In this document: piece by piece, positions 1,278-32,000 of the stretch | Layout: every line of letters starts with the position of its first letter | How positions within the stretch are numbered: position 1 is the first letter of the stretch | Assembly: GCA_041179505.1 (NCBI GenBank) | Contig: JBEGTH010000012.1 | Coordinates: 1 to 32,000 of the forward strand | Source of the DNA: Pseudomonadota bacterium | Lineage (GTDB): Bacteria > Pseudomonadota > Gammaproteobacteria > Burkholderiales > Burkholderiaceae | Direction of reading: 5' to 3' | Length of the DNA stretch: 32,000 nucleotides | Notes under the pieces: model-generated | Databases searched by the model: none | What the model saw: the letters and a program-made list of their open reading frames with translations, nothing else | What the model was told of the DNA's origin: nothing | Position numbers and translations under genes: made by a program

Positions 1278-1353
1278 GGGTCGGTAGCTCAGTCGGTAGA
1301 GCAGCGGACTTTTAATCCGTTGGTCGCGAGTTCGAATCTCGCCCGACCCACCA
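1278..1353 (+). tRNA. tRNA-Lys (anticodon UUU)
   Basis: A 76-nt cloverleaf read by eye. Acceptor GGGTCGG/CCGACCC; D arm GCTC-AGTCGGTA-GAGC; anticodon arm GCGGA-CTTTTAA-TCCGT (anticodon TTT); T arm GCGAG-TTCGAAT-CTCGC; discriminator A; encoded CCA. Confidence 0.95.
1335..1353. repeat. attL core: 19-bp direct repeat formed by the 3' end of tRNA-Lys
   Basis: AATCTCGCCCGACCCACCA occurs here and again exactly at 10963..10981. The second copy is preceded by a degenerate GCGAGTT matching the tRNA T-stem. Confidence 0.8.
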
Positions 1354-1508: not shown

Positions 1509-2891
1509 ATGCGCTCCACATTTGATTCTACGGTCATTTTAAGACCCCAAGAGCTACGTTTAAAGCGTCGTGCGAATTCTGGCGCCTGGCAAATTCATTA
1601 CAAAATTGGCTCGAATAAAAAGTGGGTTCGAGTAACTAGTAAAACCAGTGATTTATCGGCTGCCAAGCAGATTGCTGAAGACCTCTTTCATGAGGCCCGA
1701 GTACTAGATAAACGCGGTCTATCAATCATCAGCAAAAAGTTTAAAGCAGTAGCTCAAGTGGTCAGCGAACGATTTAAAGAGCAAGTCAAAGCCAAAACAG
1801 GCAAAAAGGCCTATGCAGACTACTACCGGGCCATTGATTCTTACCTTATCTCCTTCTTTGGCGGGCATAACGTAGACAACATCACCCCTGCACTCATTGC
1901 TGAGTTTCATCAATGGCGAACAGAACAAGTTGGTTACGAGCTCAAAGCATCAACTCAAAACAATCACAACAGCGCCTTAAATGCCGTATTTGATTACGCC
2001 ATTGAAAAAGGTTGGATGACCAATAGCCAAAGACCTAGCCTTAAAAACACTGGTGAAGCCACTTCTGCTCGCGGCATCTTTAGTACCGATGAATTATTAG
2101 AGCTACAAAAGTTCATCCAAAAATGGACTAAAGATGGTCGCAAAGGCAAAACGCAATATCTACGTGAGTTGCTTGGTCTCTATGTCACCTTCATTGCTTG
2201 TACAGGTGTTCGTCCAGGCACAGAAACTAAAGAGCTGAAGTGGAAGCATATTGAATTTATCCAAAAGACCAATATGCGTGTAATTCACATTACTCTGCCC
2301 CAAGGCAAGCGTGGCAGTCGTGAGCTTATTGCCCGTAACGAACTTTGGCCGCTATTAGATAAGCTACGTGAACTGCAACCAGAATATAAAGACCTTACTT
2401 TAGAGCAGCTCATTGCCAAAAAAGAAAACAAACACATTTTCCGTATGCGCGATGGAACAATCCCTTACAACCTAGTTAATGCCTTTGGAGATTGCCTACG
2501 CGAAGCTAGCATGGACAAGGGTGATAAAGATGGCAGACCGAGAAGCTTGTATAGCCTACGTCACTACTACGCTACGCAGCGGGTGTTAGAGGGTATGAGT
2601 TTTGGCTTATTGGCCAAGCAAATGGGTACTAGCATTTTGATGATTGAGCGCCACTATAGCCACTTAAAACCCCTCATGGTCGCAGAGCAGCTTGCTGGAG
2701 ATATTCCCGACGATAAAACAGCAGCCAATGATGAAATCCGTCGCTTTATGAATCCAGGACCAGTACGCAGTGACGTAATGAACTTGGTCGGAGCAACTAC
2801 TGGCGTTTATCTACCACTTGAGCAGGCGAATCCATCTGCAACGGATGAGCTTAAAGCTGAATTAAAAAAAGTAGCTACAAAGGTCAAATAA
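1509..2891 (+). CDS. int: Tyrosine-type site-specific integrase (phage integrase family)
   Basis: 460 aa. C-terminal catalytic boxes GVRPGTE (Arg I), SLYSLRHYYAT (Arg II box) and MIERHYSHL (Tyr nucleophile box). First gene inside attL next to a tRNA. Confidence 0.9.
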   Translation: MRSTFDSTVILRPQELRLKRRANSGAWQIHYKIGSNKKWVRVTSKTSDLSAAKQIAEDLFHEARVLDKRGLSIISKKFKAVAQVVSERFKEQVKAKTGKKAYADYYRAIDSYLISFFGGHNVDNITPALIAEFHQWRTEQVGYELKASTQNNHNSALNAVFDYAIEKGWMTNSQRPSLKNTGEATSARGIFSTDELLELQKFIQKWTKDGRKGKTQYLRELLGLYVTFIACTGVRPGTETKELKWKHIEFIQKTNMRVIHITLPQGKRGSRELIARNELWPLLDKLRELQPEYKDLTLEQLIAKKENKHIFRMRDGTIPYNLVNAFGDCLREASMDKGDKDGRPRSLYSLRHYYATQRVLEGMSFGLLAKQMGTSILMIERHYSHLKPLMVAEQLAGDIPDDKTAANDEIRRFMNPGPVRSDVMNLVGATTGVYLPLEQANPSATDELKAELKKVATKVK

Positions 2892-2933: not shown

Positions 2934-3413
2934 ATGAACGAGTTCATTGTGAGCTTTTTTGAAAATCACGCAAAGGGCATCCTGGGCGAATGTCATGCTC
3001 GTGCCAATGATTTACATCATTTCAAACAAGTACTCTATCGTCTTAATCAAGGGGAAGATCTAAGTAGCGAACTGCCTCAGCTTAAAAAGCTAGATAAAAA
3101 AACGGCTATTAGTGCAGTCAAAACCTTGATCAAGCGCTGTGAAGAAGATATGTTGGCATTTTGGCTATTACCCAACAGCCAAAAAATCAAGGTTGAGGTA
3201 AAGCATTCATACCCTGCTACTGACTTGGTGCCAAGATTTACAGCCAACCATACTTTTACAACTCCAGCTGGCAAGGTTGGCATTCGAGTGGCCACCCAAG
3301 GCAACTATATTTCGGTACAAACCAATACCAAAGATATAACCAAACCAAAGCTAGACGAAGCGATTCGAAGCATTGAGCGGCAACTCGTGCTCATCAATCT
3401 TTCGGAACATTGA
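2934..3413 (+). CDS. Hypothetical protein (159 aa), island-borne
   Basis: Long ORF with GAGG 7 nt upstream of the ATG. No motif I recognise. Confidence 0.6.
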   Translation: MNEFIVSFFENHAKGILGECHARANDLHHFKQVLYRLNQGEDLSSELPQLKKLDKKTAISAVKTLIKRCEEDMLAFWLLPNSQKIKVEVKHSYPATDLVPRFTANHTFTTPAGKVGIRVATQGNYISVQTNTKDITKPKLDEAIRSIERQLVLINLSEH

Positions 3414-3433
3414 AAATAAGAGTTCGATTTTTC

Positions 3434-3958
3434 TTAAGAAACGCTTTCCGGACAATAGCTCTCATTGACTTCCTCAGAACCAGAATAGGCCCCGGATTTG
3501 CAATGCTTGCATGTAATGAGCCCATTTGCATAGATACGGAGACACTCAAAATAAACATATCGTGCCTTTTCATTAGCTACACATGCAAGCTCGATCCACC
3601 CTAGGTCAATAAACGGACTAATTAACTTTGATAGGCGATCAAGTGGAATGGGTGCATCAATAAACCCACAGTATTTATTCCAATCATCACCGCTCATTTT
3701 GTCTGGGCTTTTAGAGATCAATTTTCCCTCGCTAAGGCCAAATTCATAAGAAGTAATTTCTTTAGGTATAGCTGTCGGATACTGGGGACGATCAAATGCA
3801 AATCCATCGATATACAATAAAGAGTGCTGTTCTGAATAGACCCACTTAGCCCCCGAATTGTCCCACTCATATTCATTTAATAAATCTTTTAACCCCTTCA
3901 AATCAGCAATACAATCATTTGATTTTGAAAAAGTGATCATTCCATAGGCATCAGCCAT
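3434..3958 (-). CDS. Hypothetical protein (174 aa), Trp/Tyr- and Cys-containing, no signal peptide
   Basis: ORF with AGGGGA about 6 nt upstream of the ATG. Separated from the upstream operon by 141 nt that contain the 16-bp palindrome. Confidence 0.65.
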   Translation of the reverse strand: MADAYGMITFSKSNDCIADLKGLKDLLNEYEWDNSGAKWVYSEQHSLLYIDGFAFDRPQYPTAIPKEITSYEFGLSEGKLISKSPDKMSGDDWNKYCGFIDAPIPLDRLSKLISPFIDLGWIELACVANEKARYVYFECLRIYANGLITCKHCKSGAYSGSEEVNESYCPESVS

Positions 3959-4041
3959 ATATTTCCCCTAATTTAAATTTTTAAAATTGAACTTCCCCAT
4001 GGGGCAATAGATCATCATGGTCGAGACATCTACCACTAACC

Positions 4042-4060
4042 ACCGTTACTTAAGTAACGC
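4042..4060. repeat. 19-nt site ACCGTTACTTAAGTAACGC (perfect 16-bp palindrome CGTTACTTAAGTAACG), copy 1
   Basis: Identical 19-mer at 10454..10472. Intergenic, with no T-tract on either side. Confidence 0.85.
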
Positions 4061-4099
4061 CAAATAACCTAAGGCCCAAGTTTTACCCATAACAAATAA

Positions 4100-5002
4100 C
4101 TAAGCCGCCTTATCAATGTCCGACCCTGCATCATTTGCAGCTTCTTGATTAGCCAACTTTTTTAGTTCTGCAGCCTGTTCGCGCTCATTACGCTCTTTCT
4201 CACGTAAAGCATCACGTTTAGCCAAGCGCTGGCGCCACTCAATAACCTGCTGCTTGGCAACTGCCATGCTGGCCTTTTCTTCGTCACGGTATAAGCCCTG
4301 TGCATGTAAATAATTGAAAGACTGAATCATAAGCTGGTCATCCAATTGCTCATACATTGGCAGCGCACCCACAACCTTATATTCACCATCCACAATATGG
4401 GAAATCGTGTATTGAAACGAACCAAAGCGTGTTAAATCTCGCATCGCACTTTCATGCTCCTTCGGGATAATAAAAGTTGCTAGCGGTTTTTTTGCGCGAT
4501 CCTCGAAGTAAAACCGAGCAAACATGATGGCATTGTCATTTAGATATTGTTGCTTATCCTCCTTTGCTTTGACAATATCAGGATTGACCGTGCTCTGACG
4601 GATACGCTCAATACCTTCATTGGCTTTAATAAAAGCTGGTAAATCTACGGGATTTACTCCTGCATCAATAGCTACCTGCAGCACACGAGCGTAGACATGC
4701 GCTGTTTTGCGGTTTTTGCGGATCACATAGCGAACGATGATATTCAAATCAGGGCTGTTATTTTGAGTTTTGATCTTATATTCACGACTTAATGTGCGGC
4801 GCATTTTCTTGATCACATGCTCCAAATTGGGCATAGCTAAGACCTCAACTGCATAAGCCATCACTTCAGAAAGCAAAATACCAAGCTTCTCGTTCCCTTT
4901 CTCCACATAAGTTTCCACATAGGCATCGTGCTTCCCTGATAAGGCTGTACCCTGCTCCAAAAGATTTTTAATCTTTTCTACTACTTGCTTTTTAGTAACC
5001 AT
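4100..5002 (-). CDS. Hypothetical protein (~300 aa) with a charged coiled-coil-like C-terminus
   Basis: AAGGAGGGG precedes the start (ATG 5002; alternative GTG 5005). The C-terminus reads RQRLAKRDALREKERNEREQAAELKKLANQEAAN. No recognisable enzymatic motif. Confidence 0.7.
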   Translation of the reverse strand: MVTKKQVVEKIKNLLEQGTALSGKHDAYVETYVEKGNEKLGILLSEVMAYAVEVLAMPNLEHVIKKMRRTLSREYKIKTQNNSPDLNIIVRYVIRKNRKTAHVYARVLQVAIDAGVNPVDLPAFIKANEGIERIRQSTVNPDIVKAKEDKQQYLNDNAIMFARFYFEDRAKKPLATFIIPKEHESAMRDLTRFGSFQYTISHIVDGEYKVVGALPMYEQLDDQLMIQSFNYLHAQGLYRDEEKASMAVAKQQVIEWRQRLAKRDALREKERNEREQAAELKKLANQEAANDAGSDIDKAA

Positions 5003-5011
5003 CACCCCTCC

Positions 5012-5389
5012 TTAATGAAAAAATTTCTCAAAATTTGGATTAAAAGGAGCGGGATCCTGCGGCTTCACAAATGCTAAAACATGACTAAGATCGATTGACC
5101 CTCCTTCTAGATACGCATCAAGTGCTAGTAATAGCGCACAAAGGGTCATGTAATAACCCCCGTAAAACCCCTCCTCTTCGCGCAACTCAGGGTTTAAGTC
5201 CACTAAGTTTTTAAGATCTAGCACCTTAGAGAGAACATCCTCTCGCACAACTTCAACCTTGCCTGGACCCTGATCGATATGAAGCCCAATCATGCAAATT
5301 AAGGATGAAAAAATTGCCAATGAAATGTTCATGGAAAAATTCAACCCATACTCCTCCATTGATACCAATACTGATTTATCGCTGCTCAT
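5012..5389 (-). CDS. Hypothetical protein (125 aa)
   Basis: Strong AAGGAG 7 nt upstream of the ATG. The N-terminus resembles that of the 6204..6581 product. Confidence 0.7.
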   Translation of the reverse strand: MSSDKSVLVSMEEYGLNFSMNISLAIFSSLICMIGLHIDQGPGKVEVVREDVLSKVLDLKNLVDLNPELREEEGFYGGYYMTLCALLLALDAYLEGGSIDLSHVLAFVKPQDPAPFNPNFEKFFH

Positions 5390-5408
5390 AAAATACTCCT
5401 TTGATTAA

Positions 5409-5780
5409 TTAACGAAATTTATTTAAAACTATTGGTTTCTTTTTAGAATGTCGCTTTTTGGTGCGCGCTAAAAAACCAATCTTTTCCAGCGCCTTATTGC
5501 GAACTTCTTCAGAAAACAATTCGACATACTTGTTTTTACAAACGATGTATTCCACGGTTAAGCAACCCTTTCCAATTAACAATAGGTCTACAAATCCATC
5601 ATTAATCTTAGGAAGCATCACGATTTGAGTTGCTGCCTTGACCGCACCATGTTTCTCAACTAATGTGCGGACAGTTAAATGTCTGCGAGGCAAAATCTTC
5701 TCAGCCTTACTGCAAGCAAGCAGCAACTCTGCTTCAAACTGCTGAGCCATAGTTTTTTCCTCTTTAGGTATTGCAGTCAT
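5409..5780 (-). CDS. Hypothetical protein (123 aa) with a basic C-terminal tail
   Basis: The ATG directly abuts the stop of the upstream gene (TAAATG at 5783..5778), with GAGG upstream. The tail reads ARTKKRHSKKKPIVLNKFR. Confidence 0.7.
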   Translation of the reverse strand: MTAIPKEEKTMAQQFEAELLLACSKAEKILPRRHLTVRTLVEKHGAVKAATQIVMLPKINDGFVDLLLIGKGCLTVEYIVCKNKYVELFSEEVRNKALEKIGFLARTKKRHSKKKPIVLNKFR

Positions 5781-6188
5781 TTATGCAGCCTCTGCAATCA
5801 CTGTGAAGTAACTAGGCTCGATAGCAGCTACATTGCGCGGCTTTATAGGGCCAACAAGGTCGCCGTAATTAGCTACTTGGGTATTGCTATACACACGTCC
5901 CCAATAGGATTTATTCAAAGCCAAATCCAAAGTAACCTTTGTAACCTCAACCCAAAAACGCTCTTGATAGGTTTTTTCAAGCGGCCAATTCACAACAACT
6001 TTAATCAGCTGACCAATCTGAATACTTTCGCGCTCTTCTTGCTCCACAAGATCAATCGAATTGGCAAAGCCCATGTCCAGATAGTCTAGGTTCTTAAGGT
6101 AGATATCCTTGACCTCTCCGCCTTGCACCAAGTTCGCTACATCCATCGTTTCCCGATGAAAGAGCGGATCATTAACAGCTTGCTTCAT
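5781..6188 (-). CDS. Hypothetical protein (135 aa)
   Basis: ORF in an operon context. Contains ERFWVEVTKV...YWGRVYSN...GDLVGP, reminiscent of small beta-barrel DUF2314/DUF4265-type proteins (weak, from memory). Confidence 0.65.
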   Translation of the reverse strand: MKQAVNDPLFHRETMDVANLVQGGEVKDIYLKNLDYLDMGFANSIDLVEQEERESIQIGQLIKVVVNWPLEKTYQERFWVEVTKVTLDLALNKSYWGRVYSNTQVANYGDLVGPIKPRNVAAIEPSYFTVIAEAA

Positions 6189-6203
6189 AATCCACCCCCC
6201 TTC

Positions 6204-6581
6204 TTATTCGGAAACCGCTAAGTTGTCGAGGACCTCAAAAAAGCCCTCCTTATCCATCATCAGTGACTCACCAGTAGCCAACTTCAGCGGCTCCTCATAG
6301 AGCATAGAATTGCTAACGGCAATCACTAAGCAGCTAGTAAAGTGAGGCGCCATGTGATCAAGTAAGCCAACTTGCTTATACATAGCTGATACCAAGTGCG
6401 ATTCCTGCTTAAGCTTCTTGTTTGCCTTTAAGTGGCGCTTTTCATACTCCGTAAAGCCAACCTCAGCAATAGCAGCAGAGACCAGCTCTTGAGTGCCCTT
6501 GATCTGCGATACGGTCGCAGGCACAGAGAAAGCCATACCCTGCTCACTCATGTCGATATGCAATGTTTTAGATGCATTCAT
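6204..6581 (-). CDS. Hypothetical protein (125 aa), first gene of the operon
   Basis: ORF with AAAGG about 8 nt upstream. A 253-nt divergent control region lies upstream. Confidence 0.65.
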   Translation of the reverse strand: MNASKTLHIDMSEQGMAFSVPATVSQIKGTQELVSAAIAEVGFTEYEKRHLKANKKLKQESHLVSAMYKQVGLLDHMAPHFTSCLVIAVSNSMLYEEPLKLATGESLMMDKEGFFEVLDNLAVSE

Positions 6582-6834
6582 AAAATTACCTTTCGTTTCT
6601 ATATTGTTAAAATGACTTTGAAATAAATCTCAGCCGCTATGCAACAGATACTCCCGATTGCATATAAAAAATTTTCCTCTCATTGCTTCAATTCGTAATC
6701 CTGAACTTGAAGGTTTTCTCCATGTTCCGAAACCCCACTAAGTACGACTTCAAACTCCATTCAGGGCTTCATGCTATAAAGGCTAGAAGCCAATTACATT
6801 GGGATAACAGGAGGGGAACATAAGTTCCGAAGCT

Positions 6835-7614
6835 ATGGATATCGAATACTTTTACAAAGGCCTGCCATATGAAAATGAGGTCTTTGGCTTCACGCTTGAG
6901 GCATCAACCTCTAAGTCAAAGGGCACCATGTATGAAGCATGGTTTGATTTGCTAAAAGCATCACCTTGGTACAGCCAGATGGCCACAGGAAGCTACCCTA
7001 GCAAGCAAGCAGAAAATACCTGGAAAGGGTTTGGAGATCTGTCAGAAATTACCTTTAGTGACTGGTGGAAAGATCGTGGCTACAAAATATTTGCCGAAAA
7101 AGTTCCGTACAGAAAAATCGAACGAATTGTGTTGAACTATAAGATCAAACCCTCAAAGGATATAAATGCAATCCCCGTATTACATCTTGAGGTTCCCTTA
7201 AATCTGCAACCCTCAGAGCTCAAGCGGCAATTTGGCGAAATTTTAGCTAGGCAGGAAGAACTTTATCTGTCCGATAGATTCAATCGATGGGATCACAGCA
7301 GAGCAGACTTTCATTTAGTACGCGATGGAAAGCTCGATTACAGCGACATTAAATTCAGACTTGATCTATATGCTGAATTCCAAGCAGAAAAGAAAAAGCC
7401 TGGGTTCAAGAAGAATGTATTTGCCCAGGAGAGAAAATTAGTAAGTCATATAACTATCGATGACCATCTAACAAATCAATACACTAAAGAGCTCAATGAC
7501 AGCCTTGATCATTTAATAGAGCAAACACTGTCTTTAATGGCTCATGCTACTGAGGGTCACTTCCCAGAAACAATGCCGCACTCCTGGGTCAAGGAGCTGA
7601 AAGGCAAAGCTTAA
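6835..7614 (+). CDS. Hypothetical protein (259 aa), Trp-rich N-terminal half
   Basis: Long ORF divergent from the 6581 operon. Its stop overlaps the stop of the convergent recombinase gene in TTAA (7611..7614). The start codon is uncertain because the AGGAGG is 20 nt upstream. Confidence 0.6.
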   Translation: MDIEYFYKGLPYENEVFGFTLEASTSKSKGTMYEAWFDLLKASPWYSQMATGSYPSKQAENTWKGFGDLSEITFSDWWKDRGYKIFAEKVPYRKIERIVLNYKIKPSKDINAIPVLHLEVPLNLQPSELKRQFGEILARQEELYLSDRFNRWDHSRADFHLVRDGKLDYSDIKFRLDLYAEFQAEKKKPGFKKNVFAQERKLVSHITIDDHLTNQYTKELNDSLDHLIEQTLSLMAHATEGHFPETMPHSWVKELKGKA

Positions 7615-8183
7615 ATCAACTCCACTGCCCTACGCTTCATATCGTCATTTACATCTATGTATTTTTGAGTGACTGAAATATTACGATGGCCCGCAAGGCT
7701 CATTAGCACCCGTACGCTGATGCCTTTATTAGCTAGATTGGTAATGAAGCTTCGTCTGCCGCTATGGCTACTTGCTCCAGCAATACCAGAAGCTTTATAT
7801 AAATCCTTAAAGAATAAAGCTAGTGAGTTTGGAGTAAATCCACGCTTGGGGTTCTTTTGCGTATAAAAGAATGCATGGTTGACATCTCTAACCTTCAAGG
7901 TGTCGACATAGCTTTGTAGCTCGCTTTTGAGCTTTTCACTAACAAATACCGTTCTAGCGTGTTTTCCCTTGGTGTACTCAGGCAATAAACGGATTTCGGA
8001 TTTGACCTGCATAGAGGCATCACATACATCACAGATCCTCAATGCAGCCGCCTCTCCAACCCTAAGGCCCCCGAAATTCGTAATGGATAGCAACGCCCTA
8101 TTACGAACAGCGTGTTTGGTTGATTGTGTAAATCGTAAAACTTGTTCCAACTCACTAGTAGTTAATGTTTTAGCTTGTGCCAT
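7611..8183 (-). CDS. Short tyrosine recombinase (190 aa, essentially catalytic domain only)
   Basis: Motifs GGLRVGEAAAL (Arg I), SSHSGRRSFITNL (His-x-x-Arg) and LAGHRNISVTQKYI (His + Tyr). AGGAG lies 7 nt upstream of the ATG. There is no room for a normal ~100-aa core-binding domain. Confidence 0.85.
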   Translation of the reverse strand: MAQAKTLTTSELEQVLRFTQSTKHAVRNRALLSITNFGGLRVGEAAALRICDVCDASMQVKSEIRLLPEYTKGKHARTVFVSEKLKSELQSYVDTLKVRDVNHAFFYTQKNPKRGFTPNSLALFFKDLYKASGIAGASSHSGRRSFITNLANKGISVRVLMSLAGHRNISVTQKYIDVNDDMKRRAVELI

Positions 8184-8245
8184 TGCCCAACTCCTTAAAA
8201 AGTAACAAATACACAGCTATAAGCATATTTTCTGATGTTCGAAAT

Positions 8246-8271
8246 GAGCAACCGAATGTGGCATTTTTGCC
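8246..8271. repeat. Left copy of a ~26-bp imperfect inverted repeat flanking the Rep-like gene
   Basis: GAGCAACCGAATGTGGCATTTTTGCC, compared with the reverse complement of 9213..9239, GAGCAACCAAAAATGGCATTTTTAGCC. Confidence 0.6.
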
Positions 8272-8365
8272 ATCTCAATTTAGATGTTCGATTTCAATGA
8301 CTTACAGCACAACCTAACAAAATGTGTATTTTGTGTGGTTTTAATAAAAGCAGAGATTCATCAAA

Positions 8366-8389
8366 AGATGTGGCTAATCTGCCACATCT
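8366..8389. other. Perfect 9-bp stem / 6-nt loop hairpin (candidate nick site or origin)
   Basis: AGATGTGGC-TAATCT-GCCACATCT in the 434-bp AT-rich spacer next to the HUH gene. The related half-motif ATGTGGC recurs at 8256. Confidence 0.5.
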
Positions 8390-8617
8390 GCTTATAGTGC
8401 ATTAAACAGCCCTATACGCTATTTATTACTTTTCGCTGGTGTTGATATCCAGTTAGATCAGATCGTTCAAGTTTGAGTGCTTTTATACGGAGTTATTTAG
8501 AGGCTATTGATTCGTTGTTGATAAGTTTGAAATATTTTAGATAAAGCTTCGCTAATTAAAGCTTCATTCAGCTTTATTGGAAATACAGCAAGAAACCAGC
8601 GTGGTCAGTAATGCCGC

Positions 8618-9142
8618 TTATGCTAAAGTCCAAAGCACATTATTTGTGTCTTTGCGACCCAGCTCTTTGCACATGTACTCAATCCAACCGCCATCACAAA
8701 CCTTAAAGTCGTGCTGTGTATCTAGATTGTGTACGTGCGCTTTTGCCTGTTCGATATGTTTGCCTAGTTGATTAAAGCGAAAGCCTTTTGGAAAACCGCC
8801 TATTGATAGATGCAGGTGTAATCGCTTGTCCGTACGCTCGCCCTCAATTACTGCGATGTACGTTAAACCTTTGCCATGCCTGCGTACTGCATTTGTACCA
8901 AAAATAGCCTCATTTAGCTTGTGAATAAAACGTGCTGCCGCCTGCTCACAATCTTCTTTAGCAATCTGCCTGTAATGTGTGCCTTTGGGGTTTACTACTT
9001 TTATTGCCTGTTTAAGAGTCAAAGTTAACGCTATTGGATGGCTTTTTGTAAGCCCCAATAGCCATGTCCGTGCTGCTTCCTTTTGCGTAGGAGCTGCATT
9101 TGAATCGTAGGCCATGCGTTCACGGATTTCACTTAATTTCAT
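8618..9142 (-). CDS. HUH-superfamily rolling-circle replication initiator-like protein (174 aa from ATG 9142; alternative GTG 9163)
   Basis: Three ordered motifs: ALTLTLKQ (motif I-like), KRLHLHLSIG (H-U-H) and WIEYMCKELG (Y-x-x-K). No helicase domain. No clear SD sequence. Confidence 0.6.
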   Translation of the reverse strand: MKLSEIRERMAYDSNAAPTQKEAARTWLLGLTKSHPIALTLTLKQAIKVVNPKGTHYRQIAKEDCEQAAARFIHKLNEAIFGTNAVRRHGKGLTYIAVIEGERTDKRLHLHLSIGGFPKGFRFNQLGKHIEQAKAHVHNLDTQHDFKVCDGGWIEYMCKELGRKDTNNVLWTLA

Positions 9143-9212
9143 GCAGTTATTTATACAAACCACATAAATTATTTGAAATAAATTAAATCTATATATTTCA
9201 GTAACTTACGAA

Positions 9213-9239
9213 GGCTAAAAATGCCATTTTTGGTTGCTC
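9213..9239. repeat. Right copy of the inverted repeat flanking the Rep-like gene
   Basis: GGCTAAAAATGCCATTTTTGGTTGCTC, inverted relative to 8246..8271. Confidence 0.6.
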
Positions 9240-9294
9240 TTTCACAAACCTAGAAATTATTGTTTATGTGCCCATTCACTTATAGGAGAACACG

Positions 9295-9732
9295 ATGAGC
9301 GCACTATCCAATCTAAAACTAGTAGTAGCCCAAAAACCAACAAAAATACCGCCTATTGTGCAACGTCGCAATCAGGTCATCAATAAGCTCTGGGAACAGC
9401 AAAAACTCGCTGAATCAAAGGTATCAGGCACCACCTATGCACCGCTCAAAACCAAGCGAGTCAAAGACCTAGAGGGAAACATCAAAACTTTAGAGGTACC
9501 AAAGCGTCTAAAACCCTGGTGGTTTACCAGCGATACAGGCAAAACTTGCTTAGCCATTAAGTATGGGAATAAACCCATTGAAATTGCCAAAGGCAAATCC
9601 GCCATTGAAGTATCGGATATGAAGGAACTTGTATTGGTGCTAAGCCAGCTAATGCAGGCCATTAATGATGGAGAGCTAGATAGTCAAATCGATGCGGCCA
9701 GCGCCAGCGTCAGAGCAGGATTTGAGAGATGA
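9295..9732 (+). CDS. Hypothetical protein (145 aa)
   Basis: AGGAG lies 6 nt upstream of the ATG. Features KPWWF...AIKYGNKPIEI...GELDSQI. I believe similar proteins occur in other integrative islands but cannot name a family. Confidence 0.7.
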   Translation: MSALSNLKLVVAQKPTKIPPIVQRRNQVINKLWEQQKLAESKVSGTTYAPLKTKRVKDLEGNIKTLEVPKRLKPWWFTSDTGKTCLAIKYGNKPIEIAKGKSAIEVSDMKELVLVLSQLMQAINDGELDSQIDAASASVRAGFER

Positions 9733-9790
9733 GCGATAACTCGACTGCCCTACTACTCCTTTTAACTCTGCTTCTGATTGTGGAGCAACT

Positions 9791-9943
9791 ATGAATACCT
9801 ATGAAGCTTACGTTCGCGTTATGCCTAGCAATATGGTGGTGAAAACCAAGATACAAGCCGACTCAAGCCAGTCGGCTTTATTTTTATTGCAAGGAATGTA
9901 TGGAGCTAGCAATGTAGTTCACTTGCCGTCATTAGTTAACTAA
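9791..9943 (+). CDS. Small hypothetical protein (50 aa), below the ORF-track cutoff
   Basis: GGAG lies 5 nt upstream of the ATG. It reads MNTYEAYVRVMPSNMVVKTKIQADSSQSALFLLQGMYGASNVVHLPSLVN. Same strand as its neighbours, 58 nt after the 9295 gene. Confidence 0.45.
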   Translation: MNTYEAYVRVMPSNMVVKTKIQADSSQSALFLLQGMYGASNVVHLPSLVN

Positions 9944-9966
9944 ATATATAAAAAGGATAGTTAACT

Positions 9967-10398
9967 ATGAAAATTTGTGAAATTCTGACGCTCCAAGAGC
10001 GAATTAATCTAAGCAGATTGATGCCAAGGTATAAGCCCAAAGCAAAGAAGCAAAAGCCTAAGGCTGCCAAAGCTCCAAAATGGCCCAAAGTGCCAGCAGC
10101 ACCTAAAAAGCATGTTGCTCCTAGGCCTATAGTTAAAGCGCCGCCAAAGCCATTTGATAGCCCAAAGTCAGTTCGCAAATCAATAGGCCCAAAGCAAACC
10201 AAGCCGTTAGATGATCGCTCAAACTTAGAGCCTAATAGCTTCCTGAAACCATTGCCACAAAACGTTATCAGTCCACGTGATGCAGTTGATCGAGATCTAG
10301 AAAAGAAGTTGTCTTTTGGTAGGTCCATAGCAGACCATAATGGATTTGATGGAAGGTTATCAAACCGCTCTTTTGATTCAAAATCGCGGTCAAACTAA
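9967..10398 (+). CDS. Lys/Pro/Ala-rich basic, probably disordered protein (143 aa)
   Basis: Contains KPKAKKQKPKAAKAPKWPKVPAAPKKHVAPRPIVKAPPKP. AAGGA lies upstream and the gene is co-directional with 9295 and 9791. An antisense ORF of similar length exists (9936..10328), so the strand choice is not certain. Confidence 0.5.
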   Translation: MKICEILTLQERINLSRLMPRYKPKAKKQKPKAAKAPKWPKVPAAPKKHVAPRPIVKAPPKPFDSPKSVRKSIGPKQTKPLDDRSNLEPNSFLKPLPQNVISPRDAVDRDLEKKLSFGRSIADHNGFDGRLSNRSFDSKSRSN

Positions 10399-10453
10399 GA
10401 AAAATAATTTTTTATTCATCTGGCAGACAGAGATAGTGAGACGCAATACAAAT

Positions 10454-10472
10454 ACCGTTACTTAAGTAACGC
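10454..10472. repeat. 19-nt site ACCGTTACTTAAGTAACGC, copy 2
   Basis: Identical to 4042..4060 and in the same orientation (judged from the non-palindromic flanks AC...C). Confidence 0.85.
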
Positions 10473-10482
10473 TTGAATAGAT

Positions 10483-10836
10483 ATGAAGCGCACAGTTAGG
10501 CCCCAAAGAATACAAACTACTAGCGTTGACTCTAGGCTAGATAAGCAATCTCAATTTGAGAATCTACTATCCAAAGAGGTCGAAGACAATATTAAAGGCA
10601 TTGATAGGACACGATACTCATACACCATAGAGCTTTTATACCCTTCGCAAGCAACTAGATCATGGGTACACTACCAAATAGCCTATAAAGTAATTTCTCG
10701 TAACATTGGTTCGGCTACAGTTATCAAAGTTAAAACTATCGTGTGCATGAAGTCTAAATTACGATTGCTTATTAAGCGAGATAGGTGGGCCAAGAGAATA
10801 TTGGTCGGATGGGTTCCGCGCCTAAAAACTCGATGA
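10483..10836 (+). CDS. Hypothetical protein (117 aa), doubtful
   Basis: ORF only. There is no SD sequence, and the ATG lies 11 nt after the palindrome. Confidence 0.3.
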   Translation: MKRTVRPQRIQTTSVDSRLDKQSQFENLLSKEVEDNIKGIDRTRYSYTIELLYPSQATRSWVHYQIAYKVISRNIGSATVIKVKTIVCMKSKLRLLIKRDRWAKRILVGWVPRLKTR

Positions 10837-10962
10837 GTTGAATTGGCATCAGTAAAACTTATTTAACAACTCTTTAGCCGCAGCATTAAGGAAGAAAAAG
10901 GCTGGCGCTATTGCAGTGAGGGTTGAGAATGGGAATAAGGCCGTCTTATATGCGAGTTAATA

Positions 10963-10981
10963 AATCTCGCCCGACCCACCA
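10963..10981. repeat. attR core (duplicate of the tRNA-Lys 3' end)
   Basis: Exact AATCTCGCCCGACCCACCA. The upstream GCGAGTTAATA is a decayed T-arm. Confidence 0.8.
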
Positions 10982-11095: not shown

Positions 11096-11212
11096 GACAC
11101 TTATAGCTTAACTTCAGATTTCAGGAAGGTCGATCGGAAAATTTGTCGGGTAAACCGACATTTAAAACATGGCTTGCTGGCGGACAGCTAACGGCCCAGA
11201 GCAGACCTTGGG
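11096..11212. repeat. Non-coding repeated module, copy A (related to 25019..25188)
   Basis: Blocks shared in the same order: GACACTT..TTCAGATTT..GTCGG(G/T)T(A/T)AACCGACA..AGCAGACCTTGG. Confidence 0.6.
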
Positions 11213-11246
11213 GGATAAGTTTAATAACTCATCCCCCAGCAAGTTA

Positions 11247-14079: not shown

Positions 14080-14478
14080 ATGAAAATTGGTGAACTAGCA
14101 ACAGCCACAGGCACTCAAGTGGAAACTATTCGGTTTTATGAGCAAGAGGGTTTGTTAGCAAAACCAGCTCGATCCGAGGGTAACTTCCGAATCTACGGGG
14201 ATCAGCACCTGCAACGCCTTACATTTATTCGCCACTGCCGCTCGCTGGACATGACTTTAAGTGAAATTCGTCAATTACTTCGCTTAAAAGATTTGCCAGA
14301 TGAAAACTGTGGTGCAGTAAATGAATTGCTTGATGCCCATATTCAGGATGTAAGCAATCGGATTAATGAGCTACGCCAACTTGAGCGACAATTAAAGCTG
14401 CTCAGAAAACAATGTCATGCGAATCAGGACTCAGCACATTGCGGGATCTTAAATAAATTATCGCTACCCGTAAAGTAA
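14080..14478 (+). CDS. cadR: MerR-family metal-responsive regulator (CadR/PbrR/ZntR type)
   Basis: MKIGELATATGTQVETIRFYEQEGLL (HTH). Cys residues lie in the dimerisation and C-terminal region (C..C at HCRS, ENCG, QCHANQDSAHCG). GGAGG lies 5 nt upstream. Confidence 0.9.
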   Translation: MKIGELATATGTQVETIRFYEQEGLLAKPARSEGNFRIYGDQHLQRLTFIRHCRSLDMTLSEIRQLLRLKDLPDENCGAVNELLDAHIQDVSNRINELRQLERQLKLLRKQCHANQDSAHCGILNKLSLPVK

Positions 14479-19876: not shown

Positions 19877-20344
19877 CTATCGATAAGATTGATAAATTTG
19901 GGATTGACCGTTTTTAGAGATCAATAAAACGTCATAAGGATCTTTTCTAGATCCATACTCAGGACTATCCATTCCTGGAGAGCCTATGGGCATCGCTGGT
20001 ACAGCAATCCCTACAGCATTGGGCTTCTCGGCTAATAAACGCTTAATTTCTCTCGCTGGGACATGACCTTCGATTGCATAACCCTCAATGACTGCGGTAT
20101 GGCAAGACCCAAACTGAATGGGCATACCCATCTTCTTTCTAATCTGGTCATTGCCATCGCTGATCACTTTAGTAGCAAAGCCATTTTTCTCAACATACGT
20201 AATCCAATCCTTGCAACAGCCACAGGTTGGACTCTTCCATACTGTGATCAATGGTTTTTCACTGGCAGCACGGGATGCAAACGGCACTAGCACCAATCCC
20301 ATTGCTATAGCCCTTCTTGTTAAATTAATGTTGATGGGAGCCAT
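19877..20344 (-). CDS. copG: DUF411 (CopG-type) periplasmic metal-binding protein
   Basis: Signal peptide LTRRAIAMGLVLVPFASRAAS. Also WKSPTCGCCKDW (the CxCC motif of DUF411) and GHVP. Confidence 0.8.
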   Translation of the reverse strand: MAPININLTRRAIAMGLVLVPFASRAASEKPLITVWKSPTCGCCKDWITYVEKNGFATKVISDGNDQIRKKMGMPIQFGSCHTAVIEGYAIEGHVPAREIKRLLAEKPNAVGIAVPAMPIGSPGMDSPEYGSRKDPYDVLLISKNGQSQIYQSYR

Positions 20345-21140
20345 GGCCGTCCCCTTTCTGTGCTGGTGAAACAGATTTAGGTCCAGCTACCGAAATTGAT
20401 CCCTTCATTCCCGCATCGTAATGGCCTGGTTGTAGGCATGCAAATTGCACTTTTCCAGATTTCGTAAATTGCCAAATAATTTCACCTGTTTGACCAGCGC
20501 CTAAGGTAACCATGTTTGGCTCGGCATGCTCCATTTCTGGAAACTTCATCATCTGCTTGTAGTGCTCTTGTAGCTCTTGATCTGTACCAAGCACCATTTC
20601 ATGTTTTGTTTTACCCAGATTCTTGACTACAAAGTGGATAGTTTCGCCTTGCTTGACTTGAATACTGCTAGGATTAAATCTCATGTTGTCTGTCATGCGA
20701 ACTCTAATTGTTCGATTTACTTTGGCTGCAATACCCGGCTGTCCAACACTAGAATTTTCGCTGCCATGATCATGACCACCACTGGCGCCATGGTCATGAG
20801 ACATTGCGCCCATGCCACCCATAGCCCCCATGCCTGCGCCTGATCCCTGCATCTTGTCATGCATCGCCTTACATTGACTAGCACTCATCTCAGGATGCAT
20901 TTGTTGGCACATTGCCACCCTTTGTTCAGGAGTCATTTTTGCCATATTCTCGTGCATCGCCTTACATTGATCAGGACTCATTTCAGGATGCATTTTTTGA
21001 CACATCGCTGCCATTGGATCTTGGTTCATGGCCCCTTGATTCATCATCCCCATACCGCCAGGTTGTGTTGTACCTTGCGCAAACACCAAACTAGATGCTG
21101 CCATCGCAATTGCTGCCAATGTAAATTGAATATTTTTCAT
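20325..21140 (-). CDS. Periplasmic cupredoxin (CopI-like) with a Met/His/Cys-rich N-terminal region
   Basis: Signal peptide. Duplicated MCQ(K/Q)MHPEMSxxQCKAMH units. SHDHGASGGHDHG. C-terminal type-1 Cu ligand pattern FACLQPGHYDAGMKG. Confidence 0.8.
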   Translation of the reverse strand: MKNIQFTLAAIAMAASSLVFAQGTTQPGGMGMMNQGAMNQDPMAAMCQKMHPEMSPDQCKAMHENMAKMTPEQRVAMCQQMHPEMSASQCKAMHDKMQGSGAGMGAMGGMGAMSHDHGASGGHDHGSENSSVGQPGIAAKVNRTIRVRMTDNMRFNPSSIQVKQGETIHFVVKNLGKTKHEMVLGTDQELQEHYKQMMKFPEMEHAEPNMVTLGAGQTGEIIWQFTKSGKVQFACLQPGHYDAGMKGSISVAGPKSVSPAQKGDGHGSHQH

Positions 21141-25018: not shown

Positions 25019-25188
25019 GACACTTGTTAGCATAATTTCAGATTTAGGTTTCGGCGACCTGAATTATTTACCGTCGGTTTAACCGACACTACAGCGTCAT
25101 GTCTGAGATAGACTGTTGCTGTACATAAAAGTAGACCTTCATCACACTTACCGATGGCAGGCAGAGTTCGACCCAAAGCAGACCTTGG
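25019..25188. repeat. Non-coding repeated module, copy B (with a ~50-bp insertion relative to copy A)
   Basis: Same ordered blocks as 11096..11212. It contains the perfect 7-1-7 palindrome GTCGGTT-T-AACCGAC at 25073..25087. A third related palindrome, GTCGGGTCAAACCGAC, is at 24925..24940. Confidence 0.6.
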
Positions 25189-25272
25189 CGGAACATGGCT
25201 CCACTAATCAACGATAGCAATCCGATTACTTCACAACAGCCCAATCTATAGGCTAAATTGAGGTGATTTAAC

Positions 25273-25641
25273 TTATAAATTAAACCTTGCTGTAATCACT
25301 TTCGCCTTTATCTTGATAACTGCTATGGCCTTAGCCCCTTTGGGAATAGCGAAGCTTCCTTTCAGTTCGAATTTGCCTCCATTAGGCAGCAGCTCATAAT
25401 CTTTTTTCTCTGATCCAATTAAGACTGTCAGCTTTGCTGTCCCACCGTCTGGAGGTATAGGTTTACCGTGGTCCGTCAAATACAGCGATAGGCTATCAGG
25501 CTTTGTAACCAATTCAACATCAATGTCCTTAGCCTCGACTATGACACCGCCATGCATTGGCTTTAAATCATGGCCAGCTCCAGCTTGAGCTAAGCCAGTA
25601 AAACTGATGAGCAAGGTTGCAATTACCATCATTGATTTCAT
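25273..25641 (-). CDS. Periplasmic accessory protein (122 aa) of the RND operon, unknown family
   Basis: Signal peptide ..GLAQA, then GAGHDLKPMHGG. Beta-rich. Shares SLYLTD...GTAKLTVLIGSEK...PNGGKFEL with the 29827 product. Confidence 0.75.
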   Translation of the reverse strand: MKSMMVIATLLISFTGLAQAGAGHDLKPMHGGVIVEAKDIDVELVTKPDSLSLYLTDHGKPIPPDGGTAKLTVLIGSEKKDYELLPNGGKFELKGSFAIPKGAKAIAVIKIKAKVITARFNL

Positions 25642-25656
25642 ATAGACTCCTTAAAA

Positions 25657-28600: not shown

Positions 28601-28779
28601 TCTTCTGAAGCCATTCCGCCAGCCTCGGTCATGATGGTGACAGTAGGCTTATTCAAATCGGGAAAGACATCCACAGGCATCTTGCTTAAGGTGTACGCAC
28701 CATAGACCATAGATATAGCACTGAGCAAAATCACTATCATGCGATTTTTTAAGCTGAAATCTAATAACCAAGTAAACAT
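25657..28779 (-). CDS. Heavy-metal efflux RND permease (HME family, CusA/CzcA-like)
   Basis: 1040 aa, 12-TM RND architecture. The N-terminus is ...MPVDVFPDLNKPTVTIMTEAGGMASEEVEQLITFPLE. The TM4 motif is AIGGLVDDAVVDVEN. Confidence 0.9.
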   Translation of the reverse strand: MFTWLLDFSLKNRMIVILLSAISMVYGAYTLSKMPVDVFPDLNKPTVTIMTEAGGMASEEVEQLITFPLETAMNGLPGVEAIRSVSSAGLSFIYVTFDWSVDIYRARQMVSERLSSMDGAIPDGIVSRMGPISSIMGEIMQIAIPIDESKISSMQVREYADWVLRPRLMAIPGVAQVIPIGGQVRQFQVQPNTRRMAELGLSILQIEDALRGYSANTSGGFLESNNREYLIRHIGRTSSLEDLKNIAVSNRNGQTILLRQVADITFAPAVKRGDAGYEGGPAVILGVQKQPSADTVALTKKIESAIAELKQGLPTGMEAPKVTFRQASFIDASISTLEGKLIGASIFVALVLYFFLGTIRPVLISLTAIPVSILLTALVFKYFGLSINTMTLGGLAIAIGGLVDDAVVDVENVIRRLRVNLDKASLDQLTPLAIVRAASLEVRTGIIYATAIIVLVFIPLFALPGIEGRLFVPLGIAFIVSTIASLLVSVTITPVLCFYLLPSMQSLRDHDTKIVTWLKSHYEVQLSRLLTTPKKPLMYAFASVIVAAASVPFMASSFLPPFNEGTLLIGLRLNPGVSLSESAGVASQAEKLVRQVPEVTYVGRRSGRAELDEHAEGVHVSELDVGLKPAGDLDRSMAEIQADIRSRLVNLPAAIAIGQPISHRIDHMLSGVRSQIAIKIFGDDLDVLRSQADLLRSKLAGIEGLVDLEIEKQVLAPQIKVRIDYDKAAQYGVSTSQIMATLQGMVEGERLSQIIEGNRRFALVIKLPDSARNLEGLADILIDTPNGKIPLSKIASIEDGDGPNQISRDGGKRRIVLSANASKRALSDIVADIRTIISNQTLPEGYFITLDGQFKAQEEASKVISLLSIGSFLLMFAVLYNRYKSMRLSLMIMSNIPLAMVGAVIGLWISGQPLSIAALIGFITLAGISVRNGILKISHYLNLMQSEGESFSLSMIIRGSIERLSPVLMTALVTAFALAPLLFEAERPGTEILHPVAVVIFCGLISSTLLDTFLTPVMFWLYGKKASEIAMSNMKTNEVF

Positions 28780-28789
28780 GTCTTAGTCC

Positions 28790-30399: not shown

Positions 30400-30412
30400 A
30401 GTTAAAGTGACC

Positions 30413-31696: not shown

Positions 31697-31725
31697 AAAA
31701 ACTCCATTTGTTTGTTCAAAACAGA

Positions 31726-31765
31726 GTTAGCGAGAGAAGAAGAATTAGGTTAAGGCTCTCGCTAA
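31726..31765 (-). other. Intercistronic 11-bp-stem hairpin
   Basis: GTTAGCGAGAG-(18 nt)-CTCTCGCTAAC, between the small upstream gene (stop at 31794) and the OMF start (31696). Confidence 0.5.
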
Positions 31766-31793
31766 CTTAGGCGAGAGCGAACCAATTGGGTTT

Positions 31794-32000
31794 TTCAGGA
31801 GGGGGAGGAGAAATATTGACTAAAAACTCCACTCGAGCATCTTCATAATGAAAGATGGTAGTGGCAATTGAAATGGTAAAAGTGGAGTGCAATGCTGGAG
31901 AATGCGCCAAATGACAGACTCCACAATCAGAATCGTAGCTTGCAGAATCGCTAGCTGAGGCAATACTGACTGGCTTCTCATGCTCGTGATGTGAAACATG
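31794..32000 (-). CDS. Partial small His/Cys-rich protein (C-terminal 68 aa; the start lies beyond the window)
   Basis: Not in the ORF track because it is truncated. My translation is ..HVSHHEHEKPVSIASASDSASYDSDCGVCHLAHSPALHSTFTISIATTIFHYEDARVEFLVNISPPPS, with a TGA stop at 31796..31794. Confidence 0.5.

Follow-up and report, generated by a model that had tools for sequence, protein, structure and literature searches.

The stretch of DNA analysed here, referred to as the window, comprises the first 32,000 nucleotides of contig JBEGTH010000012.1 (assembly GCA_041179505.1), and it carries a 9.6-kb island in which two identical copies of a short palindrome, PAL1 and PAL2, are found. Judged by sequence, the host is a Polynucleobacter-like betaproteobacterium, with window positions 25247-32000 being 95.7% identical to Polynucleobacter sp. 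MWH-HuK1 and the tRNA-Lys being 100% identical to that of Polynucleobacter sp. AM-25C3. The last 19 nt (1335-1353) of the tRNA-Lys(UUU) gene (1278-1353, plus strand) constitute attL, and a 19-nt direct repeat of this 3´ end (AATCTCGCCCGACCCACCA; 10963-10981, plus strand) constitutes attR, which delimits the island. Next to the tRNA gene are the gene for a large tyrosine integrase, int460 (1509-2891, plus strand; weak matches to SAM-like and catalytic domains), a 159-aa gene (2934-3413), and a 174-aa gene (3434-3958, minus strand). PAL1 (4042-4060) follows, and then a minus-strand operon of five genes (4100-6581; 301, 125, 123, 135, and 125 aa), the first-listed member of which is the 301-aa gene (4100-5005, minus strand). 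A 259-aa gene (6835-7614, plus strand) converges with a 4-nt overlap on its conserved partner rec190 (7611-8183, minus strand), which encodes an Xer-like tyrosine recombinase, 190 aa long and limited to the catalytic domain (Pfam PF00589). The gene for a 181-aa HUH-type Rep (8618-9163, minus strand; HLHLS motif, EYMCKE, and a weak REP_ORF2-G2P match under the curated cut-off) and a plus-strand operon (9295-10398) of DUF6641 (145 aa), 50-aa, and 143-aa genes, the conserved backbone of the island family, lead up to PAL2 (10454-10472), and a 117-aa gene (10483-10836, plus strand) lies just outside it.

Few of the island proteins could be assigned to families. Profile searches of the open reading frames (ORFs) against Pfam (E values up to 10), PHROGs, and NCBIfam returned only integrase domains, DUF6641, and the weak Rep match. 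The 301-aa protein has homologues of ~30% identity in the related islands L010, L011, L012, and L126 (loci are cited by number), and the other four operon proteins (125, 123, 135, and 125 aa) belong to no recognisable family. A PDB sequence search with the 301-aa protein and int460 gave no match, and AlphaFold2 models of the 259-aa and 301-aa proteins (predicted local distance difference test scores of 77 and 60) had no Foldseek match in the PDB at E < 1. A literature search for DUF6641 was likewise without a match.

The sequence ACCGTTACTTAAGTAACGC is found on the plus strand at 4042-4060 and 10454-10472, and there is no third site in the window. Allowing up to three mismatches added only the reverse-strand readings of PAL1 and PAL2. 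Given that no match was found in 100 dinucleotide-preserving shuffles of the window, the pair is not a chance occurrence. The inner 16 bp, CGTTACTTAAGTAACG, form a perfect palindrome (4044-4059 in PAL1, 10456-10471 in PAL2). The two copies, neither of which is assigned a strand as a feature, read ACC-GTTACTTAAGTAAC-GCC and ACC-GTTACTTAAGTAAC-GCT, respectively, and their identity ends exactly at the limits of the 19 nt. The minus-strand operon has PAL1 at its 3´ end, with 40 nt between the stop codon of the 301-aa gene and the site, and the start of the 174-aa gene follows PAL1 at a distance of 84 nt; PAL2 is separated by 56 nt from the stop codon of the preceding 143-aa gene and by 11 nt from the ATG of the 117-aa gene that comes next. 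No consensus promoter is predicted at either site, and neither is followed by a proper T-run. The first-pass annotation of this DNA, which had described an exact pair of intergenic 19-mers with a perfect 16-bp palindromic core, not followed by a T-run and bracketing the genes from the five-gene operon to the DUF6641 operon, was therefore accurate on all these points. It had also stated that the 19-mer is seen nowhere else and that both copies have the same orientation. The first statement holds for the window and for the 5.8 kb of the parent metagenome contig past its right end, where no further PAL was found (two copies in 37.8 kb), but not for the island family, across which the motif recurs. 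The second can be read from the three non-palindromic flank bases only, the conserved core being fully symmetric in the window. The inner side of PAL2 has a conserved flank (10420-10453) that reads GGTATTTGTATTGCGTCTCACTATCTCTGTCTGCC from PAL2 inward; this flank is shared with L009, L156, L157, and L162, and part of it (GTATTGCGGCTCGC) with L010 and L011. The exact 19-mer had 0 matches in IMG/VR viral contigs, and a megablast search of PLSDB plasmids with window positions 3400-10900 gave none. A prediction based on L096, that a PAL with an integrase gene would be found just past the right end of the window, was discarded after inspection of the next 5.8 kb of the contig.

PAL is a conserved 16-17-bp site, C-GTTACTT(N0-1)AAGTAAC-G, and the window 19-mers are two copies of it. 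Among relatives with rec190, there are three PAL copies in L009, five in L010, and four in L011 (Polynucleobacter paneuropaeus). In these loci rec190, the most conserved island protein, is 82%, 68%, and 68% identical to that of the window, and PAL is nearly unchanged across islands whose proteins share just 30-80% identity. Copies elsewhere mostly have an extra central base (GTTACTT-N-AAGTAAC). A scan with the pattern CGTTACTT(N0-1)AAGTAACG of one genome per species, divided into 8-kb tiles, returned at least 119 tiles. At least 79 of these are betaproteobacterial (at least 44 from Polynucleobacter) and hold at least 96 sites; the non-betaproteobacterial tiles look like chance matches or mis-binned contigs. 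In a 2.15-Mb contig of Polynucleobacter sp. MWH-HuK1, at least six sites are dispersed over at least five tiles. Among the matches listed, PAL is present in a few copies per genome, at island joints, and no RAYT-type gene is found among the neighbours. The first-pass annotation had proposed that the 19-mer be sought in related genomes, and had allowed that it might turn out to be a common dispersed repeat. The core was found in related islands, mostly of Polynucleobacter, and it is dispersed in a weak sense only, its abundance and restriction to island joints being unlike those of repetitive extragenic palindromic (REP) sequences. A literature search for the sequence gave no match, no publication describing PAL was found, and sites of this kind are not described in the papers on Polynucleobacter, Methylophilaceae, and tycheposons that were searched.

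In the tRNA-integrating islands of Polynucleobacter-like Betaproteobacteria, the points at which exchangeable modules meet are marked by PAL. When PAL-bearing loci were compared by all-against-all BLAST, 18.6% of 1602 interior alignment ends fell within 5 nt of a PAL, as opposed to 0.6% of random positions. The coincidence of a site with borders of segments that differ between relatives is a property looked for in a tyrosine-recombinase core site, and it is evident in individual comparisons. L010 and L011 can be aligned from positions 1746 and 3591, respectively, at the PAL upstream of the integrase gene. The integrase modules of L009 and L010 are 82% identical and their homology ends at a PAL (L009 2099, L010 5145), past which the L009 core matches the window and not L010. 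L162 is homologous to the window as far as 10471, where PAL2 has its outer edge. PALs are also found at recurrent positions relative to the genes for integrases of 407-456 aa, namely 119-143 nt upstream (11 loci), 5-13 nt after the stop codon (six loci), or after two accessory genes behind the integrase gene (four loci). int460 is 32-36% identical to integrases of this size that adjoin PAL in at least 15 loci.

Small units are bounded by PALs as well. In L009, two PALs enclose the 117-aa gene as a cassette of 412 bp, and four loci have a non-coding unit of ~290 bp between PALs (L112 3882-4191, L014 3351-3659, L076 217-523, and L103 1829-2134). The latter has ORFs of 11-36 aa in shifting frames with no conserved reading frame, its own terminator, and conserved hairpins (GGAGCAAC...GTTGCTCC and CTTTGGTTTT...AAAACCAAAG), and it may be an uncharacterised small RNA cassette; an Rfam scan at gathering thresholds, made for L112 only of the four loci, gave no match. 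L010 has four direct repeats of a 75-nt unit, made up of a tRNA CCA end, a terminator, and a PAL, beside a tRNA(CAU) gene. Where a tRNA(CAU) gene adjoins rpoD, a terminator and then a PAL are located downstream. Many PAL copies are directly behind intrinsic terminators and next to a chromosomal tRNA gene, with unrelated cargo genes downstream, and PALs lie 11-95 nt from tRNA 3´-end fragments resembling att cores in L032, L061, L075, L086, and L157 and at the native tRNA(CAU) gene.

In Polynucleobacter and a related Burkholderiaceae genome, a group I intron (Rfam RF00028, 50-57 bits) is inserted in the anticodon loop of the tRNA(CAU) gene that follows rpoD, as documented in L104 (2200-2416), L013 (5991-6219), L027 (291-506), L078 (6261-6482), L010 (201-420), L120 (91-308), and L064 (2913-3183). 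The same gene in the Methylophilus locus L086 has no intron, and a terminator and PAL follow there too, as in all of the intron loci. An ARAGORN search for tRNA and transfer-messenger RNA genes near PAL reported almost none, because the gene is interrupted by the intron.

The segment between PAL1 and PAL2 behaves as a unit. Its backbone, with the same two spacer-less sites, recurs in four contexts: the window, L162, L157/L159, and L009. The segment is bordered in the window by the 174-aa gene on the left and by the 117-aa gene followed by attR on the right. L162 has int460 and a 158-aa gene but no 174-aa gene on the left, and a 118-aa homologue followed by defence-type genes on the right. The 3´ half of a tRNA-Ile(CAU) is located ~95 nt outside PAL1 in L157/L159, where a czc efflux cluster is found on the right and there is no integrase within 10 kb. 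In L009, the contig ends ~240 nt past the left PAL, the ~45 nt outside which resemble the L157 flank, and the right side has the 117-aa cassette, a PAL with a 7-bp spacer, and then a 450-aa integrase module. A PAL1 equivalent is present after the homologous 299-302-aa gene in L009, L156-L161, and L162, and a PAL2 equivalent in L009 and L156-L162. The spacer-less PAL thus flanks the same core together with int460 (window, L162), an integrase of the 450-aa type (L009), or no integrase within 10 kb (L157), and the site beside the integrase module of L009 has the 7-bp-spacer form instead. The site variant therefore follows the rec190-encoding backbone and not the type of integrase. The first-pass annotation had suggested comparing the segment 4060-10454 across relatives, and the comparison reveals a coherent unit that keeps its palindromes while the integrase or the neighbours differ.

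We consider it most likely that the window palindromes are recombination sites. Several observations favour recombination, among them the enrichment of breakpoints, the existence of cassettes with no plausible shared regulation, the assortment of half-sites, contigs that break at the edge of PAL2 (see below), and an intact recombinase. With regard to half-sites, 0.656 of sites are symmetric where 0.625 are expected, and half-site variants therefore assort independently, which fits exchange at the centre and not a hairpin. On this basis we infer that the joints arise by site-specific recombination, and give a probability of about 0.5 to PAL being such a recombination joint. That it is, more specifically, a core site for a tyrosine recombinase, with 7 + 6/7 + 7 bp, is suggested by its sequence at about the same even odds. 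The site can be parsed as NSCGTTA + CTTAAG or CTTNAAG + TAACGSN, so that two inverted arms of ~7 bp (NSCGTTA) would flank an overlap of 6 or 7 bp (CTTAAG or CTTNAAG); in terms of geometry, an operator of 8 + 0/1 + 8 bp fits equally. Recombination between two PALs would join or separate modules, and such exchange would re-assort integrase, att, and cargo modules exactly at the PALs. In an excised circle, the PALs would split a 6.4-kb backbone-plus-cargo module (4061-10453), made up of the five-gene operon, the 259-aa gene, rec190, Rep, and the DUF6641 operon, from a 3.2-kb integration module in which the 117-aa gene, attP at the tRNA-Lys, int460, and the 159-aa and 174-aa genes would run continuously from PAL2 to PAL1. 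Since the window sites are fully symmetric they would have no built-in direction, and their recombination could lead to deletion, fusion, or inversion. A role in fixing the orientation was considered for the central base of the 7-bp-spacer form (T 46, A 43, C 3, and G 1 among the matches listed) and dismissed, as both T and A forms are found in arrays and at joints that correspond to each other.

The most plausible enzyme for the window pair would be rec190, which is favoured by its location inside the bracketed module, its intact catalytic residues, and its association with the spacer-less PAL whatever the large integrase. The protein matches PF00589 with E = 3.5e-26 over profile positions 2-170 of 172 and aligns to XerD 110-284 with all six catalytic residues conserved (R41, K72, H140, R143, H166, and Y175). 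To judge from these residues, a recombinase that looks catalytically competent is encoded together with the sites; int460 is also in the island. By sequence rec190 is nearer XerA, XerC, and XerD than the invertases, and it has more than 6500 homologues in databases at E < 1e-10. We nevertheless make the assignment tentatively and with less confidence than that of a recombination joint, considering that no junctions were seen in ~67 near-identical contigs, that most PALs among the matches listed are not beside rec190, and that rec190 homologues are found in islands without PAL.

A number of observations count against this enzyme, or against recombination at PAL altogether. Among the matches listed, a tyrosine recombinase gene is present in 20 of 89 betaproteobacterial PAL tiles, with rec190 in 7 and a large integrase in 17 of those PAL tiles, and the commonest neighbour of PAL is the large integrase and not rec190. 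Homologues of rec190 are encoded in Burkholderia sp. WP9 and in L150 without PAL, and a neighbour-joining tree nests these among the PAL-associated homologues; a tie of PAL to the rec190 lineage was set aside for this reason. rec190 has no N-terminal DNA-binding domain, and the conserved arms of PAL are short for a recombinase-binding element. The large integrases, for their part, appear to use cores in tRNA 3´ ends (tRNA-Lys in the window, the tRNA-Ile(CAU) half in L157). The central base of the 7-bp form is inconsistent along arrays, half-sites of 8 invariant bp around a free central base are equally classic for operators bound by dimers, and mosaic joints could come from homologous recombination at any conserved 20-mer.

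L150 and L148 are islands with homologues of rec190 and DUF6641 but no PAL, and other palindromes are found there at comparable places (L150 6565-6589, also 6157-6175 and 14176-14194; L148 11088-11104 and 4897-4912), namely ATGATGTCGTT-TAA-AACGACATCAT and TGTCGGTT-G-AACCGACA. These may be lineage-specific equivalents of PAL, for which the evidence is thin. L150 also has three tandem tRNA 3´-end fragments (at 4602, 5257, and 6363). In L157 (7039-7095) and L159 (2097-2153), a 45-nt tRNA-Ile(CAU) fragment that starts at the anticodon loop and includes the CCA end is found ~95 nt from the PAL1 equivalent, on its outer side, and the two elements, which are 99.97% identical, diverge into different flanks exactly at this fragment. 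The idea that PAL might be the att core of the 450-aa integrases was given up on these grounds, as the L157/L159 element ends at the tRNA-Ile(CAU) 3´ half ~95 nt past the PAL; large integrases thus seem to cross over in tRNA 3´ halves and not in PAL.

Recombination products were sought in every contig encoding exactly the rec190, 174-aa, 117-aa, or 143-aa protein, ~67 of which are at least 99% identical to the island. The expected junctions read ...GCAATACAAATACCGTTACTTAAGTAACGCCAAATAACCTAAGG... for a circle and ...CTACCACTAACCACCGTTACTTAAGTAACGCTTGAATAGATATG... for a deletion leaving a single site. No junction from PAL x PAL deletion, circle formation, or inversion was present in the ~67 contigs, which weighs against recombination, although assembled contigs are weak detectors of rare junctions; the 6.4-kb segment was not found inverted in any of the relatives or contigs. 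All of these contigs are collinear except for one 5.8-kb deletion variant, L136 (SRR22387976), which lacks window positions 4695-10496. This deletion, which starts within the 301-aa gene and stops 25 nt beyond PAL2, has a junction of 3-bp microhomology (TAG) and ends that are not at PALs, and it likewise speaks against the role proposed for PAL; the backbone module can evidently be lost by ordinary illegitimate deletion. In three metagenomes, Logan contigs (L154, L155, and L139) have an end at the outer PAL2 edge (10470, 10478, and 10442), which suggests alternative right-hand neighbours in the populations. The ends of many other contigs are at 1374 or 1414, shortly behind the tRNA-Lys terminator, or at 11133, ~150 nt past attR. 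Together with those at the PAL2 edge, these breaks suggest population variants that branch at these points, and the branch past attR suggests a remnant of another element between 10982 and ~11160. The first-pass annotation had envisaged a nested excisable unit mobilised by the second recombinase and had asked for a circle or a single-site deletion junction. The modular behaviour of the segment and the breakpoints at PAL agree with the former, while the junctions themselves were missing from the ~67 assembled contigs and the role of rec190 was not substantiated.

A different function for PAL, less likely than recombination but a serious rival in our view, is that of an operator or architectural site at which a dimeric DNA-binding protein of the island or the host insulates or co-regulates modules. 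The joints would then reflect homologous recombination at PAL, as the sole stretch conserved between diverged islands. The 8 + 0/1 + 8-bp arrangement with a free central base is what would be expected of such a site, as are fixed short distances upstream of gene starts (11-13 nt for the 117-aa gene, 28-36 nt for a QSregVF_b-like gene, 84 nt for the 174-aa gene, and 119-143 nt for the integrase gene), near-identical contigs without a recombination product, and, among the matches listed, the lack of a nearby recombinase gene at most PAL copies. However, PALs 11-143 nt upstream of starts are only some of the copies; many others are 5-13 nt after stop codons, behind terminators, by a chromosomal tRNA gene, or before unrelated cargo. 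No helix-turn-helix, ribbon-helix-helix, or other DNA-binding domain was detected in the island ORFs in the Pfam (E up to 10), PHROGs, and NCBIfam searches, the models of the 259-aa and 301-aa proteins, the only two modelled, match no DNA-binding fold, and the 30-fold enrichment of breakpoints within 5 nt exceeds the RecA effect that would generally be expected of 20 bp of identity. An operator had been among the options of the first-pass annotation; no candidate binding protein was found for it, and copies closely behind stop codons or terminators fit it poorly. We think it unlikely that PAL is instead an accessory site of the int450/int460 family (arm-type, autoregulatory, or for an excision factor) in which no crossover takes place. 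The integrase gene is the most frequent neighbour of PAL, with fixed geometry, and the proximity (11-95 nt) of PAL to tRNA 3´-end fragments resembling att cores in L032, L061, L075, L086, and L157 and at the native tRNA(CAU) gene would fit this role. It is harder to reconcile with the window, where 490 nt separate PAL2 from attR, 2.7 kb separate PAL1 from attL, and no PAL is found between the tRNA-Lys and int460, with L157, which retains both PALs and has no integrase within 10 kb, and with PAL-bounded cassettes that contain neither an integrase gene nor an att site. A perfect palindrome of 16-17 bp is also atypical for the arm-type sites of lambda-type integrases.

Two further explanations can be given little weight. 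The Rep gene is located between both copies, and the palindrome can fold into a small hairpin with a TTAA loop, and the HUH Rep (8618-9163) might therefore recognise PAL or nick it as an origin; Rep recognition had also been among the proposals of the first-pass annotation. This is improbable in the extreme: homologues of Rep are restricted to the window lineage (L009, L156, and L162), L010 and L011 have near-identical PALs with unrelated proteins in the Rep slot, most Polynucleobacter copies among the matches listed are far from any Rep, and the hairpin is weak (-3.8 kcal/mol). We rejected this role for PAL because the site persists where the Rep gene does not. It is scarcely more probable that PAL has a structural role that involves no specific protein, be it as terminator, RNA hairpin, or REP-like repeat. 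PAL is palindromic, intergenic, often beside terminators, and present in several copies per Polynucleobacter genome, but it is the sequence and not merely the pairing that is conserved, the outer positions have no compensatory symmetry, and, among the matches listed, the few copies per genome are at island joints only and have no RAYT-type gene nearby. An intrinsic terminator was dismissed on account of a 6-bp stem of -3.8 kcal/mol and the lack of a T-run on the strand of the upstream genes. REP sequences and bacterial interspersed mosaic elements number tens to hundreds per genome and are accompanied by a RAYT transposase; a repeat of this kind was dismissed with two copies in 37.8 kb and no RAYT-like neighbour.

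Other repeats were noted in and around the island. Inverted repeats of 44 nt (8225-8268 and 9217-9260; 73% complementary) are found on either side of the Rep gene, in the divergent intergenic regions rec190/Rep and Rep/DUF6641. A tandem CAATCGCACA-C-CAATCGCACA at 1423-1443, between the tRNA-Lys terminator and the start of int460, has counterparts 20-30 nt from a PAL in L029, L037, and L061, and near tRNA-Lys 3´ fragments in L029 and L061; these tandems may be arm-type integrase sites. The window tRNA terminator (1371-1395) is at the place where L029, L037, and L061 have a PAL. Direct repeats of ~38 nt (TGGCGGACAGCTAACGGCCCAGAGCAGACCTTGGGGGA, 76% identical; 11178-11215 and 25155-25192) flank a 14-kb block of metal-ATPase, MerR, and copper genes, and there is a weaker copy at 9692-9729. 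In L156-L161, the 117-aa homologue directly adjoins the czc efflux cluster without the 14-kb block in between, and the block therefore looks like a separate insertion. Sequence similar to TGGCGGACAGCTAACGGCCCAGAGCAGACCTTGGGGGA adjoins PAL or is upstream of integrase genes in L093, L095, L103, L106, L112, and L118. Within the copper/metal block, the minus-strand ORF at 20325-21140 contains an 87-nt tandem duplication (20850-20936 and 20943-21029; 78% identical).

PAL can be compared with several known systems. The pdif sites of Acinetobacter plasmids are 28 bp long (11 + 6 + 11), have asymmetric XerC and XerD arms in alternating orientation, and depend on host XerCD. As with PAL, gene modules in many contexts are bounded by short near-palindromic sites for tyrosine recombinases and an Xer-type enzyme is implicated, but PAL is 16-17 bp, symmetric, and shares no sequence with dif, and its candidate enzyme is encoded by the element and consists of the catalytic domain only. 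The attC sites of integrons are imperfect palindromes of 57-141 bp with R´´, L´´, L´, and R´ boxes that are recombined by IntI as folded single strands, with attI and Pc alongside. Arrays of small unrelated cassettes, each ending in a palindromic recombination site (a candidate one in the case of PAL), are common to both. In contrast to attC, however, PAL is a short and perfect duplex-type site, PAL cassettes carry their own terminators, the integrase gene is itself a cassette, and rec190 scores 40 bits against a cut-off of 265 for the integron-integrase model. An attC site was accordingly dropped as a candidate for PAL, which is 16-23 bp and perfectly symmetric, with rec190 far under the integron-integrase cut-offs. 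Short tyrosine invertases of the FimB/FimE type resemble rec190 in having ~190-200 aa and being mostly catalytic domain, and they act on short inverted repeats; they differ in that rec190 scores 42.6 bits against an invertase-model cut-off of 221 and that no 6.4-kb inversion was seen in relatives or contigs.

Further parallels come from integrative islands. Modular excision of PAISt of Streptomyces turgidiscabies at internal copies of a palindromic att site was demonstrated experimentally, the palindrome being the 8-bp att core (TTCATGAA) of the island's own integrase (PMC4057263). The likeness is that an integrative island is subdivided by several short palindromic copies into modules for which joining or release by site-specific recombination is known in PAISt and proposed for PAL; the differences are that the window PAL is 16-17 bp, that the outer att is the tRNA-Lys 3´ end, and that excision was not seen in ~67 contigs. 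Tycheposons and tRNA-linked additive islands of streamlined aquatic bacteria have also been described (bioRxiv 10.1101/2020.12.28.424599; PMC10872708), and according to the passages searched there are such islands at tRNA-Met(CAT) and tRNA-Lys in Methylophilaceae and tandem arrays at tRNA(CAU)/tRNA-Lys in freshwater Betaproteobacteria. Going by those passages, the resemblance is one of layout only, with a tRNA, an inward-facing tyrosine integrase, a small replication module, cargo, and a partial-tRNA repeat. The corresponding parts of the host island are the tRNA-Lys (1278-1353), int460 (1509-2891), Rep (8618-9163), orphan cargo, and the repeat at 10963-10981. Internal palindromic junctions or a second short recombinase are not mentioned in the searched passages of either paper. 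Overall, PAL differs from PAISt, pdif, and integrons in the length, symmetry, and sequence of the site and in the enzyme implied.

A broader and speculative proposal is that freshwater Betaproteobacteria (Polynucleobacter, other Burkholderiaceae, and Methylophilaceae) may exchange cassettes by a system in which PAL is the universal joint. Genes, non-coding units, the att core, and the integrase gene would constitute PAL-bounded cassettes beside tRNA(CAU) and tRNA-Lys, shuffled by a catalytic-domain-only, Xer-like recombinase of ~190 aa, in analogy to integrons and pdif modules but with other parts. If PAL were an operator instead, the finding would be more ordinary, and the site would still be a regulon signature of the island family. 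PAL is a simple sequence tag by which island modules can be delimited in Polynucleobacter and related metagenome-assembled genomes. If it is a recombination joint, it would provide a mechanism for the assembly and re-assortment of flexible genomic islands in abundant, genome-streamlined freshwater bacteria, in which a defined site of 16-17 bp could allow the exchange of integration modules, of replication backbones, and of cargo, for instance genes for metal resistance and defence. It would then represent a third cassette-type system beside integrons and dif modules, and short tyrosine recombinases, a very widespread family with more than 6500 homologues, would thereby be assigned a role.

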